Source of the DNA: Promethearchaeota archaeon
Lineage (GTDB): Archaea > Asgardarchaeota > Lokiarchaeia > Sigyniarchaeales > SOKP01
Reading direction: 5' to 3'
Assembly: GCA_019894975.1 (NCBI GenBank)
Contig: JAGXNO010000075.1
Coordinates: 1 to 11,089, forward strand
Length of the DNA: 11,089 bases
The position numbers and the translations under genes were made by a program. Below are positions 593 to 9,480 of the stretch, piece by piece. The notes beneath the pieces were generated by a model. That model worked only from the letters and a program-made list of their open reading frames with translations. It made no database searches and was not told the DNA's origin. Within the stretch, counting starts at the first letter, position 1. Each line of letters opens with the position of its first letter.

Positions 593-892
593 TTACATAT
601 TTATTATTGAATCGCTTTTAAAAATTAAATCAATCACATCATCAGAGGCAATTAATTTAATTTTATCTGAAATAAAATTAGACAATCCTCGGATTTCTAT
701 GTGCTCTTCACACGCAGCGACTTTTTTATTTTGATTGAGAGCTTGTGAAACTGCTTTATTAGATTTATTAGCAAAATACACTGCATTTTGAAGCAAAAGA
801 ATTGTTACATCATCTTCTTCAGTATGTTCCATAGCAAGTTCTACACCTGTAATATCTTCGCTTGTTATAAAATATAAAACTTTTTTGCTCAC
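593..892 (-). CDS. dsrH: DsrH/TusB-family sulfur relay protein
   Basis: ILLLQNAVY and EHIEIRGL...LI...VIDLI motifs; about 100 aa; third gene of an E-F-H trio. The start is likely GTG at 892 (GGAGG about 10 nt upstream) rather than TTG at 901, which nearly abuts the GGAGG. Confidence 0.85.
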   Translation of the reverse strand: MSKKVLYFITSEDITGVELAMEHTEEDDVTILLLQNAVYFANKSNKAVSQALNQNKKVAACEEHIEIRGLSNFISDKIKLIASDDVIDLIFKSDSIINM

Positions 893-906
893 CTTAATCA
901 AACCTC

Positions 907-1251
907 CTAAAATGGTATTGCAACAGTTGAATCTTCAATCATTTTCAAAATTTCACCGTGTTCTTTTACTTCAACTTGATCGATTAAATCATTTTTAGTA
1001 AGTCCCCGTTCATTAAGAGCCTTCCTATCTACATAGATGTCAAGATCTATATTTTTTATGAAATCTATGTGCATAGAATACATTGTTTTATCCACATCCT
1101 TAAGAAAGGCATAGACACCATCATTTATAGCAATGGTTATCGGTTCAAAATCACCACTAAGGGCGACAGTCATTCTTAAACCTTCAACAGGATAAAGCGT
1201 CCCCTGAGGAGGTTGCCGTAAAAGAATAACTATATTTTTTTCTTCTGACAT
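907..1251 (-). CDS. dsrF: DsrF/TusC-like (DsrE-family) sulfur relay protein
   Basis: PPQGT..VEGLRM, INDGVYAF, YVDRKALNERGL and a C-terminal IPF. No Cys. AGGTGAT SD-like motif upstream. Confidence 0.8.
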   Translation of the reverse strand: MSEEKNIVILLRQPPQGTLYPVEGLRMTVALSGDFEPITIAINDGVYAFLKDVDKTMYSMHIDFIKNIDLDIYVDRKALNERGLTKNDLIDQVEVKEHGEILKMIEDSTVAIPF

Positions 1252-1262
1252 TTTTTATCACC

Positions 1263-1625
1263 TTAACAAATTACTACTAGTCTATCAGTTTCATCTATAA
1301 TTTTCGCAAGATCAGGCGTGCCTGCTCTTTTCACATCGCCACATTCCTTTTTTAGACAGTATTTCATGGTACCCCTAACTAAAAGACAGAGGTTGCATAA
1401 TCTTACCGTAGCGCCCTTCTTCAGGATTTCTTTAAAACCCTCTTCGATGTTGAATATCCCTTCGATTTTTTTCTGGTTTTCTAAAAGCGCATTCACCGCA
1501 TCCATGTAGCAAAAAACACGAACTTCATGCCCTTTATCCAATGCGGCATTAGCTAACCTTACTACTGTTTCAGGGGCTTGTGTTTGATAAGGCCCGCTAA
1601 AAAAAAGAATTCCCAGTCGTGACAT
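1263..1625 (-). CDS. dsrE: DsrE/TusD-family sulfurtransferase
   Basis: SGPY, LANAALDKGHEVRVFCYMDAV and LCNLCLLVRG (Cys at the DsrE/TusD persulfide position, within a CxxC). Confidence 0.88.
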   Translation of the reverse strand: MSRLGILFFSGPYQTQAPETVVRLANAALDKGHEVRVFCYMDAVNALLENQKKIEGIFNIEEGFKEILKKGATVRLCNLCLLVRGTMKYCLKKECGDVKRAGTPDLAKIIDETDRLVVIC

Positions 1626-1650
1626 CTTTTTTCATCAACTCCATCTTATA

Positions 1651-2715
1651 TTAATTTTTTCTCCACATAAAAAGTAGATAAGCCATCAACCAACAACCGA
1701 GGATAATGAATACCCCAGATAATAGGCTTCCGAGAGAAAGAAGTGGAAAACCGCTTAAAATGTTACCTATATTGCATCCCATAGCTATGATTGCTCCAAT
1801 TCCCATCGCTAATCCACCAACAAATTGAATCAAGATAGTTTTTGCATGTTTAGGGGTTCTCAACTTGAATTCTTTTGCTATAATCGCACTAATAAAAGCA
1901 CCAATAACAATCCCTATTACTAACCATGTTTCCCAACCTAATACTGAATTAACTCCTGTATTCCAGAATTTATTCCAGCCGACCCAACCACCTGTAATCC
2001 CTAAAGGATAATTTCGACCAGATGCCGCTGAAGTCACATAAGCAAACGATGCTATTATTCCTATTGCAACTGCGGTTACAGCCCAATGCCATCCTTGTTT
2101 GAAAGTTTTTTGCCCAAAATTGGAAAAATCAAGCATGGGTTTATTTTCTCTTTTTTTTGCTCGTAATTCACGCCATATCCAAAAATAAGCAATTAAAGCA
2201 ATTCCTACTATACCAATGATTAACATAAATATTGGTGTGAGATCTCCAAAAAGTGTAAGTGCAGTGTTATCTGAGTACGTGATTTTTGTACTATCTTGTA
2301 AAGCTTTAGCTATGGGGTTAAGTGCTCCAACTTTCGTAAAATAAGCACCACCTGCAAACCCTAATAAAGCAACTAGTGAACCCATCATACCTTCTCCTAC
2401 TCGGTATGTAGTTCCACTTGCGCATCCAGCGGCTAAGACCATTCCGACTCCGAAAATTAACCCTCCGATAATGTTAGCACCCCATGCAAAATGCTTAGGA
2501 TTTAATGTAATTATGTCCGCAAATGACATTATTGCAAAACCTAACATTGACAGAAGTATTGCTAGTGCTACTGATTTTGCTAATTTGTACTCTTTTAATA
2601 ATATAACATCTCTAAAAGCAGAATTCATGCAAAACCTTCCTCGCTGTAATACAAATCCAAAAATAATTCCTAAAATTAATCCAGGAATTAACGCATACTG
2701 TATATCTATTGCCAT
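1651..2715 (-). CDS. yeeE: YeeE/YedE-family sulfur-compound (thiosulfate-type) transporter
   Basis: Polytopic 354 aa protein with GFVLQRGRFCM, GGLIFGVGMVLAAGCASG and GGLAMGIGAIIAMGCNIG, which carry the three conserved Cys motifs. AGGTGA SD-like motif upstream. Confidence 0.93.
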   Translation of the reverse strand: MAIDIQYALIPGLILGIIFGFVLQRGRFCMNSAFRDVILLKEYKLAKSVALAILLSMLGFAIMSFADIITLNPKHFAWGANIIGGLIFGVGMVLAAGCASGTTYRVGEGMMGSLVALLGFAGGAYFTKVGALNPIAKALQDSTKITYSDNTALTLFGDLTPIFMLIIGIVGIALIAYFWIWRELRAKKRENKPMLDFSNFGQKTFKQGWHWAVTAVAIGIIASFAYVTSAASGRNYPLGITGGWVGWNKFWNTGVNSVLGWETWLVIGIVIGAFISAIIAKEFKLRTPKHAKTILIQFVGGLAMGIGAIIAMGCNIGNILSGFPLLSLGSLLSGVFIILGCWLMAYLLFMWRKN

Positions 2716-2728
2716 TTTTTCTTTTCAC

Positions 2729-2962
2729 CTATTTTATTTTAACCAATATTTTCCATTCAGAAGCTCCAACTTTGTCAGTTGAAAGAACTTCATTTCCCAT
2801 TGATTTCATTGTTTCAGGAATTCTTTCTGCTGAAAGAGGATAATCTATCAAGATTTCTAGAACTTCTCCTGAATTCATTTTTTTAGCTTTCCTCTTACTT
2901 TTGACATCAGGGTAGGGACAAACCTCCCCTCTACAATCTAATGTTTCTGTAACATCAACCAT
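2729..2962 (-). CDS. tusA: TusA/SirA-family sulfur carrier (YeeD/YedF-like)
   Basis: 77 aa; LDCRGEVCPYP (CPxP motif); GEVLEILIDYPLSAERIP. Confidence 0.93.
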   Translation of the reverse strand: MVDVTETLDCRGEVCPYPDVKSKRKAKKMNSGEVLEILIDYPLSAERIPETMKSMGNEVLSTDKVGASEWKILVKIK

Positions 2963-2990: not shown

Positions 2991-3003
2991 TTACAATTTG
3001 TAA
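2991..3003. promoter_or_regulatory. Palindromic operator candidate 1 (TTACA-ATT-TGTAA)
   Basis: Perfect 5-3-5 palindrome about 28 nt upstream of the tusA start. Bracketed by a 12-bp inverted repeat (TTTTATCAATTT 2975-2986 / AAATTGATAAAA 3002-3013). Confidence 0.75.
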
Positions 3004-3017
3004 ATTGATAAAATAAA

Positions 3018-3053
3018 CAATATTAAGAAATTTATAAAGATTTCTTAATATTG
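3018..3053. promoter_or_regulatory. TATA box (TTTATAAA 3031-3038) inside a 14-bp perfect inverted repeat; probable promoter of the tusA operon
   Basis: CAATATTAAGAAAT (3018-3031) / ATTTCTTAATATTG (3040-3053). Purine-rich BRE-like AAGAAA precedes the TATA on both strands. Confidence 0.6.
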
Positions 3054-3137
3054 AGTATATAGTAAAAGTAGCGTATATATCTAGTAATATATCTTTTTTA
3101 AATCTTTACATTCCTTAATGTATTCGTATAAATTCAC

Positions 3138-3150
3138 TTACAAAATGTAA
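3138..3150. promoter_or_regulatory. Palindromic operator candidate 2 (TTACA-AAA-TGTAA)
   Basis: Same motif, upstream of the TTATAATTATAA TATA-like element (3165-3176) of the lrp gene. Confidence 0.75.
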
Positions 3151-3197
3151 CATAATTATCAAAATTATAATTATAAGGGAATTATTAATAAATAATC

Positions 3198-3210
3198 TTA
3201 CAATTTGTAA
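3198..3210. promoter_or_regulatory. Palindromic operator candidate 3 (TTACA-ATT-TGTAA)
   Basis: Same motif, exactly 60 bp from site 2, over the expected lrp transcription start. Confidence 0.75.
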
Positions 3211-3239
3211 CTAGAATTAACTGAAATTCTTATGGTAAA

Positions 3240-3848
3240 ATGGATACACCTAAGAAATTTAAAAAAAAATTAAAGCTAGATAAGATCAACATTGAACTTT
3301 TCAAGTCTTTAGATGAAGATGGAAGGATAAATTATTCAAGAATCGGAAAAAAATTTGGTCTATCTCATGTTGCTATAAAAAACCGGTATGAAAACCTAAT
3401 AAAAAAAAATATTATTAAACCAAGCCTGTTAGTTAATTTTTCAAAGTTAGATTTCAAATTAGCAATTTTATTATTAGAATTAGAAACTGAGAGTCTTGAC
3501 AAAATAAAAGATATCTATTCTAAATGTCCCAGAGTTTTATTCTCTTTTAATTTAATAGGTGAATATAATCATCTTTTATTATTTTTTGCTGAAAATTTAG
3601 AAACTATAGAAACAATTTTTAATTCCTGTATGCTATATAATTTGAAGGGTGTGAGAAAGTCGAATATCCTACTATTTGGAAGTTTAAAAGAGGATCTCTT
3701 TTTACCTTTAAATTTATCTCAACTTGACCAACAAAATGAAAATACACCATGTGGAACTTGTTGCAAGTTTTGTAAATCTTTTATTAAAGGACAATGTATT
3801 GGCTGCCCAGCATCAAAATATTACGAGGGACCGTTAAAAATAACCTAA
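3240..3848 (+). CDS. Lrp/AsnC-family transcriptional regulator with Cys-rich C-terminal extension
   Basis: N-terminal LDKINIELFKSLDEDGRINYSRIGKKFGLSHVAIKNRYENL HTH; RAM-like domain (LIGEYNHLL, GVRKS); tail PCGTCCKFCKSFIKGQCIGCP. Confidence 0.9.
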   Translation: MDTPKKFKKKLKLDKINIELFKSLDEDGRINYSRIGKKFGLSHVAIKNRYENLIKKNIIKPSLLVNFSKLDFKLAILLLELETESLDKIKDIYSKCPRVLFSFNLIGEYNHLLLFFAENLETIETIFNSCMLYNLKGVRKSNILLFGSLKEDLFLPLNLSQLDQQNENTPCGTCCKFCKSFIKGQCIGCPASKYYEGPLKIT

Positions 3849-3949
3849 TTCCAATATAAATTTCTTTATTTAAATAAAAAAATTAAATCTTAAGGATTAA
3901 AACCTAGATATTTTTTGTTTGGTAAGGCTGTATTTACTTTATCTATTTG

Positions 3950-4729
3950 TTAAACATTTTTATTTTTTGATCTTCTTTTCTTTACTGCTCGAGTCTTATA
4001 CAATTCAACATATAAATAACGATCCATTTTCATCCAATATTTACATTTAACGACTCCTTTTTGTATTAAATCATCAGGAATACTTTCTTTTGTAATTATT
4101 CCTTTATTATTATCTTTTTTATGAACATATTCATAAATCCATGATGGAATCTTTTTTGCGTTTCCAAACCCTAATTTTTCATATATCACATCAATATATT
4201 CTTTATTGTCTGCACCTTGAATTTCACAAGAAACATTAATGAGCTCACTAATTGGTAAATGTTCGGGTTGATATTTATTATATATTTTTTTTACTTCAGC
4301 ATTGTAATTTTTGACAGATGGAAAGGTTTTGCATTGTTCAATAAACGCATCTCTCATAACTTCAAAAAATTTAGTGCTCAATATTAATACTCTATAAACT
4401 TTTATGACTTGAGAATATACATCTACCAACATTAAATTCAACTTTTTTGGACAAGTTTCCTGTAAAATTTTTTTATAGTTATTAACCTCCATTTCTGGAT
4501 AAAGACAATTTGAATAAGTAACATCACACCAATCTAAGTTTCCGATTTTAAATAATAGAAAAAATACGTTGGGTCTTACAATGAGTTTTAGGTTTATATT
4601 CTCTGATTTATATGCTTTAATTTCTTGTTTTGAAGGGATTTTCATACCAACAATTAAATTACTATTAATGTAGTCAAATTCTATAAAATCTTTATTCCAG
4701 GAAAGCTTCTGATGATATTTTTCATTCAT
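3950..4729 (-). CDS. Hypothetical protein (259 aa)
   Basis: Long ATG-initiated ORF in AT-rich DNA with protein-like composition; no family confidently recognised. Confidence 0.75.
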   Translation of the reverse strand: MNEKYHQKLSWNKDFIEFDYINSNLIVGMKIPSKQEIKAYKSENINLKLIVRPNVFFLLFKIGNLDWCDVTYSNCLYPEMEVNNYKKILQETCPKKLNLMLVDVYSQVIKVYRVLILSTKFFEVMRDAFIEQCKTFPSVKNYNAEVKKIYNKYQPEHLPISELINVSCEIQGADNKEYIDVIYEKLGFGNAKKIPSWIYEYVHKKDNNKGIITKESIPDDLIQKGVVKCKYWMKMDRYLYVELYKTRAVKKRRSKNKNV

Positions 4730-4841
4730 GCTATTCTATATTTTCCAACACTTTTTACAATCTATTTAAATCAGTAGGATTTATCTCAATTAAGGTAAAT
4801 TAGATGTTTTTTGGTTCATATTAATTTAAATATTTTTTTGA

Positions 4842-4854
4842 TTACAGATTGTAA
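4842..4854. promoter_or_regulatory. Palindromic operator candidate 4 (TTACA-GAT-TGTAA)
   Basis: Same motif, followed by C as at sites 2 and 3, in the divergent gap between the hypothetical gene and the hesB-like/tlpA/ccdA operon. Confidence 0.7.
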
Positions 4855-4954
4855 CCTAAATATCTTAATATTCTTTCAAATTAAAAAAATATAAATTAAG
4901 ATTTAAATTAAATATTTTTATATAGAAATTTTCTAAAAATATGACTTTATAACT

Positions 4955-5284
4955 ATGAATGTGACTTTTTCGAATAAAGCGAGTGATTATATTAAAAAAA
5001 AAAATATTATTAATATTTTGGTAAAAATTTCATTTTTTATACAAGGTTGTGTTCATATTTATGAACCGAAATTAGAACCAATTCCGATAGATAAATTAGG
5101 AAATTTTGAGAAAAATGAACGGATTATACTAAATGGATTTACTATACTTCTATCAGATCAATTTCTAAAGATATATAATTCCCAAGAAGAGCTCCATATT
5201 GATTTGCAAAAATTCCCAAATCAAAAGCTAATATTAAAAAATCTCGATCCAATTATAATTCAAACATGCAAAATAGATAAATAA
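4955..5284 (+). CDS. HesB-like / CC-Se-motif-like small protein
   Basis: MNVTFSNKASDYIKKK...QGC...EP...LNGFTILL...LHIDL...KLIL resembles the HesB/IscA-like CC/Se family layout. One Cys at the motif and one near the C-terminus. Confidence 0.55.
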   Translation: MNVTFSNKASDYIKKKNIINILVKISFFIQGCVHIYEPKLEPIPIDKLGNFEKNERIILNGFTILLSDQFLKIYNSQEELHIDLQKFPNQKLILKNLDPIIIQTCKIDK

Positions 5285-5305
5285 GTAAAATTAAAAACTT
5301 TTAAA

Positions 5306-5980
5306 ATGTCAACAGAAAATAATAATTCAGATCAAAATACTAATACTCATAGAAAAGTACACTATAGGCTCGTTCGTTACAAAAAACTATCAAAATCTTA
5401 CTATAACAAATTTTTGACTCTATCTATCGTGATTTTCCCTACTATTATCGTAGTTGCATTATTAATTTCAGGAGGAATTTTTGATAACATGTTTAATGGA
5501 GGGGCCCCTAATATACCCACGATCCCTGATAACCCTACTGAACCTCCCACGGAACCTTATAAATCCGATATCACTTTAACAACAATTTATGGTCAGAAAA
5601 TTCAATTAGCAGATCATCAAGGTAAAGTAGTAATTATTTACTTTTTTGGTACTCACTGCCCTGGATGTCCAGAGCAAGCAAGTATTTTAGCAAATATAGA
5701 TGATATATACACTAGTAGTCAACTATATATAGTTCCAATATGCCTTGATACAACCGCTGAGACATCTAATAGTGAATTAGATGATTGGTTAGGAGGATAT
5801 GATCCTAATTGGCCAGTTATACGGGATACCGTTCAATATACGTATGCAAGTTATTTCAATCTAATGTACAAACCAACAGTGAAAATATTAGATATAAATG
5901 GAGATATTGAAGCTACAATGGTGGGTACAACACAAGGTAGTTTCAACAATATTAAAACACAAGTGGATGCTTTATTATAA
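5306..5980 (+). CDS. Membrane-anchored TlpA/ResA-like thioredoxin (redoxin domain)
   Basis: One TM helix, Pro-rich linker (PNIPTIPDNPTEPPTEP), LADHQGKVVIIYFFGTHCPGC, and YKPTVKILDINGDI with the cis-Pro. Confidence 0.88.
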   Translation: MSTENNNSDQNTNTHRKVHYRLVRYKKLSKSYYNKFLTLSIVIFPTIIVVALLISGGIFDNMFNGGAPNIPTIPDNPTEPPTEPYKSDITLTTIYGQKIQLADHQGKVVIIYFFGTHCPGCPEQASILANIDDIYTSSQLYIVPICLDTTAETSNSELDDWLGGYDPNWPVIRDTVQYTYASYFNLMYKPTVKILDINGDIEATMVGTTQGSFNNIKTQVDALL

Positions 5981-6004
5981 AAATTTAATTATCAAATTCT
6001 AAAA

Positions 6005-6733
6005 ATGTTTGATCTTGGATTATTTTTTATAGCAATTGGTGGAGGTATATTGTCTTTTTTAGCACCATGTAATATTGGCACACTACCAACTTTTATAGCA
6101 TATATTCAAGGTCAAACCAATTCAACTAAAAAGGCTATACTTATGAGTTTAGCGTTTTCTGTTGGATTTATCGCATTATTTACAATCGTTGCGACTCTTT
6201 TTATTGTTATATCTGGGTTTATACGTTATATTTTTTGGATAAAAATAATATCAGGCATTATTATAATATTAATGGCATTTTATCTTTTCTTCAGCAAATT
6301 TAATAAAAAAAAACCTCAAAACTATAAACCAACACAAGTAGAGGAGGAAGCTTTAAAGAACATTTATGGTATTAAACATGAAGAAGAAGAAAAAAAACAT
6401 CAAGGAATTTTAGGAGCAATAATTCTTGGGTGTTCTATGGGTTCACCTTGGATTGCCTGCATTACACCAATCTATCTATCCATCGTGACTATAGCTATGA
6501 ATCAAGAAACTTTTATTTTTGGATTTTTATTATTTTCTTTTTACGCGATAGGATTAATGATACCTTATATCCTTATAGGAACCGCATTAGGACTTATTAA
6601 CCAAAGAGTAATTGTTAAATTCTTTAAAATTAGTTCATGGTTGCAAAAATTCTTTGCTATATTATTAATTTGGATAGGAATTGAATTTTTACTGTCTGCA
6701 TTTGGTATTGGGGGGTTGCTACCTTTTATTTGA
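6005..6733 (+). CDS. ccdA: CcdA-family (DsbD transmembrane domain) electron transporter
   Basis: GGILSFLAPCNIGTLP, PWIACITPI, FYAIGLMIPY; about 6 TM helices. Confidence 0.88.
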   Translation: MFDLGLFFIAIGGGILSFLAPCNIGTLPTFIAYIQGQTNSTKKAILMSLAFSVGFIALFTIVATLFIVISGFIRYIFWIKIISGIIIILMAFYLFFSKFNKKKPQNYKPTQVEEEALKNIYGIKHEEEEKKHQGILGAIILGCSMGSPWIACITPIYLSIVTIAMNQETFIFGFLLFSFYAIGLMIPYILIGTALGLINQRVIVKFFKISSWLQKFFAILLIWIGIEFLLSAFGIGGLLPFI

Positions 6734-6756
6734 GTTTTATGGGTGTTATTTTAAAT

Positions 6757-7437
6757 ATGAATGTTGATATAATTATTGCCTTTGTTTCTGGATTAACTAT
6801 TGGTGCTACTCCATGTATTTTATTAATGGTTAGTGCTTTTGGTACTTCACTTATTTTAATAGAAGAAGAATTGAAATTTATAAAAATTGCTATTGGGTTA
6901 ATCTCGGGTCTAATCTTTGGTTATATTCTAATCTCGATACTGTTTCTCTTTTTCTTTCCCTTTTTGGAAGTTTTATATTTATTCAAGTATTTTTTTGCGG
7001 GAATTTTAATTTTAATTGGAATTTGGCAAATAATTGAGTGTAAAAAAGAAGATAGTATTATATTTGGTACTCCTGAAAAAGTTAAGAAAGTATTAAAGGA
7101 TTTTATTGAAAAAAAGACAGGTTTTTATGCCTTCCTGGTGGGAATTATTTTTGTTCTCATAAAAATGCCTTGTTTTGGAGGTGTTTATTTAGCATTAATA
7201 TATAATCTCCATACCAACCCCTTACTTTATGTATTCATCTTTGTATATTTAGTAGGGTTGGTTATTCCAATAATAACAGTTCTTATTCTTCTTAGATTGG
7301 GATTAGAGTCAAGAAAACTTAATGATTTTAGACTAAAGTATAGAACACAATTAAGAATATTAAGTGGGGTTATCATAATTTTTCTTGCTTTTTATTTATT
7401 AATACTAGATGATTTAATCAATAGTTTATTAATTTAA
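6757..7437 (+). CDS. Second CcdA/DsbD-transmembrane-like protein
   Basis: GLTIGATPCILL, KMPCFGGVY and YLVGLVIP; both redox Cys retained. The likely start is ATG 6757 (GGGTG upstream); the track uses TTG 6730. Confidence 0.8.
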   Translation: MNVDIIIAFVSGLTIGATPCILLMVSAFGTSLILIEEELKFIKIAIGLISGLIFGYILISILFLFFFPFLEVLYLFKYFFAGILILIGIWQIIECKKEDSIIFGTPEKVKKVLKDFIEKKTGFYAFLVGIIFVLIKMPCFGGVYLALIYNLHTNPLLYVFIFVYLVGLVIPIITVLILLRLGLESRKLNDFRLKYRTQLRILSGVIIIFLAFYLLILDDLINSLLI

Positions 7438-9317: not shown

Positions 9318-9388
9318 ACTAAATCACTAAAATCAATAAAATACAAAAATTTAATTATTTGGGAGTGTTTTGATCTATATCATAAAAT

Positions 9389-9460
9389 GGGCCTATGGAT
9401 TAGTGGAAGATCGTTTCCTTGGCATGGAAAAGGCCGCGGGTTCAATTCCCGCTAGGTCCA
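9389..9460 (+). tRNA. tRNA-Ala (anticodon GGC), intronless, CCA not encoded
   Basis: Acceptor stem GGGCCTA/TAGGTCC with G3:U70; D-stem GATT/GATC; anticodon arm TTTCC-TTGGCAT-GGAAA (GGC at 9421-9423); T-arm GCGGG-TTCAATT-CCCGC; discriminator A. Confidence 0.97.
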
Positions 9461-9480
9461 TAACTTATTCTTGATTCTGG

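Follow-up and report, generated by a model that had tools for sequence, protein, structure and literature searches.

What binds the four copies of one palindrome that stand between the genes of an archaeal sulfur locus? The question is raised by contig JAGXNO010000075.1 of a Promethearchaeota archaeon (Asgardarchaeota, Lokiarchaeia; assembly GCA_019894975.1), analysed here as one whole contig of 11,089 nucleotides (11 kb) and called the window below. The source is a metagenome-assembled genome (MAG) of 3.93 Mb with 31.6% G+C. Beside the palindromes, the contig carries the gene of an Lrp/FFRP-type regulator (3240-3848), a divergent tusA-yeeE-dsrE operon and, farther downstream, a candidate thiol-redox operon headed by the gene of a 109-amino-acid (aa) protein. 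We consider that the four palindromes are probably operators of this regulator, which likely controls its own gene, the sulfur-uptake/relay operon and the thiol-redox operon. An earlier, sequence-only reading had already taken the palindromes for operators of the neighbouring Lrp, and that proposal is now supported by the rarity and clustering of the motif, by its fixed positions at orthologous loci, by the fold of the protein and by the form of the operator.

The palindrome reads TTACA-N3-TGTAA (TTACANNNTGTAA). A pattern search returned exact copies at 2991, 3138, 3198 and 4842 (sites 1 to 4), the same four that had been listed before, and no others in the window; a six-frame map of open reading frames (ORFs) places all of them between genes, as had been claimed, the nearest ORF borders being the tusA end at 2962, the regulator start at 3240, the start of a minus-strand 259-aa ORF at 4729 and the start of the 109-aa gene at 4955. 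The additional C noticed 3' of TGTAA is found on the plus strand at sites 2-4 and on the minus strand at site 1. The central bases are ATT, AAA, ATT and GAT in sites 1 to 4, and the centre of site 4, with its one G in this genome, is AAT or AAA in relatives. Dinucleotide shuffling left 0.01 copies per window on average, and four or more copies in 0 of 200 shuffles. A degenerate copy with two mismatches to the motif, also reported earlier, lies 32 bp (about three helical turns) ahead of site 2; as a 14-mer, this pseudo-site has a single occurrence in the genome. Two-mismatch copies in the window are at chance level (14 found against 14.5 expected), so that the signal is carried by exact or near-exact sites only.

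Across the genome the exact motif occurs six times, and four of these copies fall inside 1.9 kb. Base composition predicts 18 copies and Markov models of orders 1-5 predict, analytically, 8-9; the motif is thus concentrated in one place without being enriched overall, and for at least four copies to fall within some 1.9-kb stretch of the genome by chance, the probability is about 5e-9 to 5e-7. With a weight matrix built from 45 distinct orthologous sites, this window's four among them, the top four matches genome-wide were the four sites of the window (18.3-22.5 bits), site 3 having the highest score in the genome at 22.5 bits. Matches below the top four scored at most 16.9 bits and lay mostly in ORFs, giving no sign of a wider regulon in this genome. 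The genome-wide scan that had been suggested as a check on the sequence-only reading therefore found the motif rare and, here, restricted to promoters. In other assemblies, the regulator locus holds 4 of 11 copies (G041), 3 of 11 (G043) and 2 of 15 (G042). Could the cluster be a chance grouping of an A+T-rich word? Such a view could point to whole-genome totals in the relatives that equal those of a control pattern, and to the chance level of the two-mismatch copies. The clustering probability speaks against it, however, as does the recurrence of the cluster at orthologous positions in many independent assemblies, and we give this explanation practically no credence.

The positions of the sites are retained where the regulator gene is retained. 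Orthologues in two same-genus genomes share 86% and 53% identity with the regulator. Of the 40 relatives that were searched, G018 and G021 alone had a match at the level of an orthologue, the others, single-contig genomes included, reaching at most 34% identity; both G018 and G021 retain the dyad about 25-30 bp ahead of the regulator start. A further 49 loci were collected from metagenomes and MAGs, 48 of which were scanned for the motif, and removal of near-identical upstream regions left 33 non-redundant loci. An exact site lies within 300 bp upstream of the regulator gene in 17 of these 33, and motif density is 3.03/kb in the 300 bp upstream against 0.025/kb in the remainder of the same loci. 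In the 48 scanned loci, the exact sites take up a few positions relative to the regulator start, namely about -42, -102/-111, -250/-258 and +1600.

Within the sites, conservation is uneven. When both spacers are aligned, identity to the window is 93-98% in the arms and 65-67% in the remaining spacer sequence; the central triplet is variable (44-76% conserved) except at site 3. Conserved arms around a variable centre are the pattern expected if a protein touches the arms, bending being all that is required of the centre. This pattern bears on a reading in which the palindromes act as RNA or DNA structure (leader hairpins, terminators or cruciforms) or are left over from a mobile element. The 5' leaders probably include sites 1 and 3, and a larger inverted repeat encloses the tusA TATA box, both of which would suit a structural role; the arms are conserved and the loop is variable without compensatory change in the arms, however, and this protein-contact pattern makes the structural reading very improbable. 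Its individual forms, and small ORFs besides, were tried and dropped: as RNA hairpins the sites reach only about -0.8 kcal/mol each, not better than shuffles; the spacers have no match in Rfam (the window's only match is a tRNA-Ala); no credible small ORF was found in the spacers; and for a mobile element or miniature inverted-repeat transposable element there are six genome copies, no flanking repeats or transposase, and sites fixed at orthologous positions.

The four sites differ in how far they travel with the regulator gene. Site 3 is kept at -42 in nearly all orthologues of at least 77% identity. Site 1, with arms 98% conserved over 11 orthologous spacers, occurs solely next to a divergent tusA operon; at loci in which other genes have replaced that operon, sites 3 and 4 are retained. 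Site 2 has 93% conserved arms and a 61% conserved centre, is decayed in L046 and L067, and is missing from G018-type loci without tusA. In G018, L044, L045, L047, L073 and L076, an equivalent of site 4 is found about 1600 bp past the regulator start, some 100 bp ahead of the 109-aa gene; the arms of site 4 are conserved at 97% and its centre at 44%. The pseudo-site keeps its degenerate form, at 89% identity across orthologues. The dyad is also present in the upstream spacer of orthologues of only 47-60% identity that sit in other gene contexts, where the divergent neighbours are an ArsP-type permease, a Thioredoxin_3 protein, a TauE-family exporter and a pyridine-nucleotide disulfide oxidoreductase.

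The form of the dyad is that of a known class of operators. Archaeal FFRPs were found by SELEX to select abcdeWWWe'd'c'b'a', where AAT or ATT is optimal in the centre and a particular base is preferred at -1 (Yokoyama et al. 2009, PMC2715240). The consensus of the sites, GTTACA-[AAT/ATT]-TGTAAC, matches this form, being a 13-bp dyad with 5-bp arms and a 3-bp gap, and an AAT or ATT centre predominates among the 45 orthologous sites; the suggestion that a 5-3-5 dyad with an A/T centre is the archaeal Lrp/FFRP form thus agrees with the published rule (PMC2715240). The closest structural reference is FL11 (PH1519) from Pyrococcus sp. OT3, known in complex with DNA (PDB 2e1c), which shares the dyad form, the centre and the preferred -1 base as well as the fold of a helix-turn-helix (HTH) joined to a RAM domain, and whose contact positions align with the regulator without gaps. 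FL11 contacts bases through L24, A34, E35, S36, T37 and H39 (PMC2715240). In the ungapped alignment, positions 24, 34, 35, 36, 37 and 39 correspond to Y32, S42, H43, V44, A/S45 and K47 of the regulator, and these six residues are identical in nearly all orthologues. The published contact table (Table 4, PMC2715240) pairs Ser34 and Ala37 with T at a, a hydrophobic residue 36 with T at b, and Tyr24 with A at e, and T, T and A are the bases seen at a, b and e here. At positions c and d, the operators have A and C as compared with C and G in characterised operators with Glu35 and Arg39, and the facing residues also differ, being His35 and Lys39 here rather than Glu and Arg/His. This paired change of bases and facing residues would be consistent with the regulator as the binder. 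The operators of the FL11 paper have the arms TGAAA/CGAAA, TTCGA, TACGA, TGCAA, GACGA and TACGC, and the TTACA arm is not listed among them (PMC2715240). The regulator differs from FL11 as well in its additional five-cysteine tail and in its candidate targets, which are sulfur and thiol genes rather than genes of amino-acid metabolism.

The assignment of the protein rests on several comparisons. At 202 aa, it exceeds the usual two-domain Lrp/AsnC format of about 140-170 aa. It matches HTH_24 with 23.4 bits (cut-off 21.9) and the HTH_AsnC-type model with 26.9 (cut-off 27), and a profile of 17 orthologues aligns over residues 8-151 to full-length Lrp/AsnC structures, the PDB alignments starting at residue 8-11; the structures matched include B. 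subtilis LrpC, PH0140, FL11/PH1519 (including the DNA complex) and P. furiosus LrpA. The AlphaFold model (mean predicted local distance difference test score, pLDDT, 74.5) shows three helices at the N-terminus and, after them, a beta-alpha-beta-beta-alpha-beta (RAM) domain with the elements E73-81, H83-94, E99-104, E111-117, H120-130 and E138-146, and Foldseek finds the same Lrp structures with it over about 145 columns, with E down to 1e-10. Beyond residue 160 follows a tail of about 50 aa (window 3717-3845) with five invariant cysteines, C171, C175, C178, C186 and C189, in the pattern PCG-x2-C-x2-C-x7-C-x-GCP...Y-x-GP (the end is also given as YRG). No Pfam model was found for this tail. Of the 90 Lrp-like representatives of about 190 aa found in an exhaustive search, 76 carry the tail, and the named tail-bearing proteins come from Asgard, Korarchaeota/Thermoproteota and Euryarchaeota MAGs.

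Several observations weigh against the regulator as the occupant of these sites, or against parts of the way in which we expect it to act. His35 and Lys39 have no precedent in the published table, so that the A and C at positions c and d are not predictable from it. Orthologues of 67-78% identity in other contexts (L048 and L053-L058) encode the same six contact residues with no good palindrome upstream, and the same holds for a co-directional clade (L062-L065, L069, L070, L079 and L082); since the contact residues persist there without an upstream dyad, autoregulation is either not universal or has had its operator moved. The earlier observation that sites 2 and 3 are 60 bp apart is correct for the window, and it does not extend to a fixed phase, for the distance is 60, 65 or 69-70 bp among orthologues and this variation disfavours strict helical phasing. 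TATA calls in DNA of about 70% A+T are uncertain, and for site 4 the TATA-like elements of best conservation are 50-80 bp away on each flank. Part of this evidence would also suit real operators bound by another factor, either a paralogous Cys-tailed Lrp or a non-Lrp dimer, with the neighbouring regulator as a mere target: at least three paralogues are encoded in this genome and many more in its relatives, and several orthologues with identical contact residues have no upstream dyad. Against such a factor, the dyad goes with orthologues of this group as low as 47% in identity, also where their gene contexts are unrelated. The regulon extends no farther than the surroundings of the regulator gene, the shape of the dyad, 5-3-5 with a W centre, is specific to Lrp proteins, and three of the five bases of its arm fit the contact residues. 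We therefore regard binding by another factor as distinctly unlikely, and binding by the neighbouring regulator as the probable reading.

The side loci mentioned above have features of their own. In orthologues of 51-59% identity (L062-L065, L069, L070, L079, L082 and L083), none of which has the exact dyad, the regulator gene stands after tusA-yeeE-dsrE-dsrE-tusB on the same strand; such co-directional loci imply that the linkage of regulator and operon predates the divergent arrangement. L065 has a 5-4-5 variant, TTACA-TCTC-TGTAA, directly before the TATA box and transcription factor B recognition element (BRE) of tusA. The sequence ACTTTAAAAATGAAAC recurs in L048 and L053-L058 and upstream of tusA in L065, L069, L070, L079 and L082, with up to three tandem copies in L082. 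It was considered as a variant operator of the dyad-less loci and set aside for a BRE/TATA-type promoter, because of its location at the expected TATA position; it probably represents one promoter type common to these loci. As for the paralogues, the assembly (G000) has three Lrp-like genes, at C93:23738-24289 and C84:22451-23686. The C93 gene encodes a full Cys tail and has a TTTCA-ATT-TGAAA dyad about 290 bp upstream, and the C84 genes form a convergent pair with shorter Cys motifs.

How would the regulator act from these positions? Sites 1 and 3 had been said to follow TATA boxes, and this arrangement holds for the boxes called here (Table 1), with about 28 bp from box to site 1, read on the minus strand, and about 22 bp from box to site 3. 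Taking the distance from TATA box to transcription start as about 26 bp, the two sites overlap or directly follow the putative starts. The regulator's element, TTATAATTATAA, falls within a conserved spacer block, ATTATAATTATAAG, of 80% identity. In Pyrococcus furiosus, the repressor LrpA binds next to the TATA box, on its downstream side, and from there blocks recruitment of RNA polymerase (PMC2995911). Sites 3 and 1 resemble the operator of the lrpA promoter in standing at the downstream TATA edge; the LrpA operator is GTCGA-N3-TCGAC, whereas here the dyad has TTACA arms, its role as a repressor site is a prediction, and the same dyad also occurs at a divergent operon and in a third spacer 1.6 kb off. 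We envision that one dimer would occupy each dyad, each helix-turn-helix reading one TTACA arm while the A/T centre lets the DNA bend. Site 3 would be the autoregulatory operator and site 1 that of the tusA-yeeE-dsrE operon. Protein bound at these two sites may, as with Pyrococcus LrpA, permit binding of TBP and TFB and block RNA polymerase, so that the sulfur-uptake/relay operon and the regulator's own gene would be repressed. Site 4 would join the operon of the 109-aa, TlpA-like and CcdA-like proteins, or else the 259-aa gene, to this local regulon.

The same protein on the same sites might instead be mainly an activator, acting from site 2 on its own gene and from site 4 on the operon of the 109-aa gene through recruitment of TBP and TFB in the way of Ptr2 and LysM, which would make sites 1 and 3 secondary. 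Archaeal Lrp activators bind as dimers just upstream of the BRE (PMC2995911), and site 2, ending about 7-14 bp upstream of the regulator's BRE/TATA, is at that reported position; every well-conserved TATA-like element of the 109-aa gene likewise has site 4 upstream of it. The two sites with the strongest conservation, 3 and 1, are nevertheless downstream of TATA, where repression is the sole demonstrated mechanism of archaeal Lrp proteins, and site 2 is the least conserved of the four and has been lost in several lineages. A mainly activating regulator thus appears rather unlikely, if less so than a different binder, and repression from sites 1 and 3 is retained as the preferred mode.

Under repression from sites 1 and 3, site 2 and the pseudo-site would probably help to assemble a DNA-wrapping complex of several dimers, and they could activate when the protein is scarce, in the manner of the Ss-LrpB switch. 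Ss-LrpB of Sulfolobus solfataricus binds three boxes cooperatively, wraps the DNA and switches with concentration (PMC2995911, PMC2715240). It is comparable in having multiple regular dyads upstream of its own gene, with a consensus close in form (TTGCAA-WWW-TTGCAA); it differs in that the TATA box here stands between two sites, one upstream and one downstream, and in that the 60-70 bp spacing of sites 2 and 3 exceeds two or three helical turns, only the pseudo-site and site 2 (32 bp) fitting such a distance. By this analogy, a multi-dimer complex with dose-dependent autoregulation is plausible. The five-cysteine tail would probably sense the signal, through a metal or Fe-S site or a thiol/persulfide switch. 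Binding by the regulator, repression, cooperativity and the nature of the signal are what we infer from these arrangements.

Cysteine-bearing local repressors with palindromic operators beside sulfur-handling genes are known from SurR of the Thermococcales and from the bacterial persulfide sensors SqrR, CstR and BigR. SurR and the persulfide sensors belong to ArsR-type or CsoR-type families, and the SurR motif is GTT-N3-AAC. The regulator here is Lrp-type and its motif has a different form, whereas SurR is an ArsR winged helix with a CxxC switch; there is no homology between them, and the resemblance would be one of function only.

Gene context points to sulfur and thiol genes, not to amino-acid genes. 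Operon 1 is linked to the regulator gene in many loci, either divergently or co-directionally, and the synteny of operon 2 with site 4 is retained in G018, L044, L045, L047, L051, L073 and L074. The 259-aa ORF on the other side of site 4 has no Pfam or NCBIfam match and no usable Atlas match, and is kept in the same position at 72-75% identity. The features of the window are collected in Table 1.

Table 1 Palindromes, promoter elements and genes of the window (positions as in the whole contig)
Feature	Positions	Strand	Sequence or content	Remarks
Site 1	2991..3003	.	TTACAATTTGTAA	29 bp ahead of tusA start codon
Pseudo-site	3106..3118	.	TTACATTCCTTAA	one good and one divergent half-site
Site 2	3138..3150	.	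TTACAAAATGTAA	exact match; candidate auxiliary or activator-position site
Site 3	3198..3210	.	TTACAATTTGTAA	begins 42 bp ahead of regulator start codon
Site 4	4842..4854	.	TTACAGATTGTAA	in divergent spacer between 259-aa ORF and 109-aa operon
tusA TATA box	3031..3038	-	TTTATAAA	92% conserved; putative promoter, from position
Regulator TATA-like element	3165..3176	+	TTATAATTATAA	between sites 2 and 3; putative promoter
Regulator gene	3240..3848	+	Lrp/AsnC (FFRP), 202 aa; HTH, RAM and Cys tail	Pfam, NCBIfam, PDB profile, AlphaFold, Foldseek
Operon 1	593..2962	-	tusA 2729-2962, yeeE/Sulf_transp 1651-2715, dsrE 1263-1625	Pfam, NCBIfam
Operon 1, distal genes	593..1251	-	dsrE-like 907-1251, tusB/dsrH-like 593-901	Pfam, NCBIfam
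Candidate operon 2	4955..7437	+	109-aa protein 4955-5284, TlpA-like thioredoxin-fold protein 5306-5980	Pfam
Candidate operon 2, distal genes	6005..7437	+	DsbD/CcdA-type membrane protein 6005-6733, 235-aa ORF 6730-7437	
259-aa ORF	3950..4729	-		other gene flanking site 4; alternative target

The locus thus appears to combine an operator of textbook Lrp/FFRP shape but with a new arm sequence, an Lrp protein with an extra Cys tail, and an Asgard archaeon as the host. A limited literature search, which leaves novelty unproven, found no published Asgard regulator-operator pair, Cys-tailed Lrp protein or Asgard Lrp operator. The recognition table of the FFRPs would gain a new arm (TTACA) and two contact residues (His35 and Lys39), and an Lrp-family protein would be tied to sulfur trafficking and thiol-redox genes rather than to amino-acid metabolism, a theme that the neighbours of the distant orthologues (thioredoxin, ArsP-type permease, TauE and disulfide oxidoreductase) also show. 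More tentatively, and as a possibility that we put well below the operator assignment itself, Lrp proteins of about 190-200 aa with a Cys tail may form a pan-archaeal class of redox, Fe-S or sulfane-sulfur sensors. This locus would then be the first operator-regulon pair of that class, a new FFRP specificity with TTACA arms read by His35/Lys39, and a local switch coupling TusA-YeeE-DsrE sulfur import and relay, together with envelope thiol-redox genes, to the sulfur or thiol state. Since a large subfamily spanning archaeal phyla, as yet unstudied, has this tail in common, hundreds of regulators could be annotated from a single biochemical investigation, and the locus is compact for such testing, with a 15-bp dyad, a 202-aa protein and three promoters.

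Several smaller features of the genome and the spacers are recorded here. The two remaining exact copies of the motif in the genome (C117:4598 and C109:25055; loci L087 and L088) are located within the 3' part of HdrB/HdrD-like genes with a CCG domain, and HdrA-like genes begin 25 bp and 269 bp farther on. They fit the thiol/disulfide theme of the proposed regulon; this Hdr-cluster location of motif copies is not conserved in the relatives, the copies in G018 and G021 not being in homologous places. Further exact copies in those two genomes are mostly within ORFs or beside unrelated genes (for example GH20, a restriction-modification methylase and PadR).

In the spacer between tusA and the regulator gene, the tusA TATA box lies inside a 19-nt inverted repeat of 89% (CAATATTAAG / CTTAATATTG, at 3013-3031 / 3040-3058) that is 89-94% conserved. 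This repeat could be the site of a second factor or part of a bidirectional promoter; its 10-mers have chance frequency genome-wide, and one element of it, TCTTAATATT, reappears beside site 4 at 4863-4872. A block at 3062-3072, GTAAAAGTAGC, is 94% conserved in orthologous spacers and occurs twice in the genome, and neither an ORF nor an RNA family accounts for it. Between site 4 and the 109-aa gene, the 42 bp at 4873-4914 are 92% conserved, above most of the spacer, and contain several TATA-like elements, to which orthologues add a TTACA half-site 31 bp past site 4.

Among the genes around site 4, orthologues of the 259-aa ORF begin about 28 codons later (231-239 aa), which suggests that its true start may be the Met at residue 29. 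The 109-aa protein has two cysteines, C32 and C105, and gives sub-threshold full-length matches to Fe-S_biosyn (HesB/IscA-like; E 0.017) and to a CC/Se-motif family (E 0.003). Farther downstream, a tRNA-Ala (GGC) gene occupies 9388-9461, with a TATA-like element, TTTAATTA, about 30-40 bp upstream.

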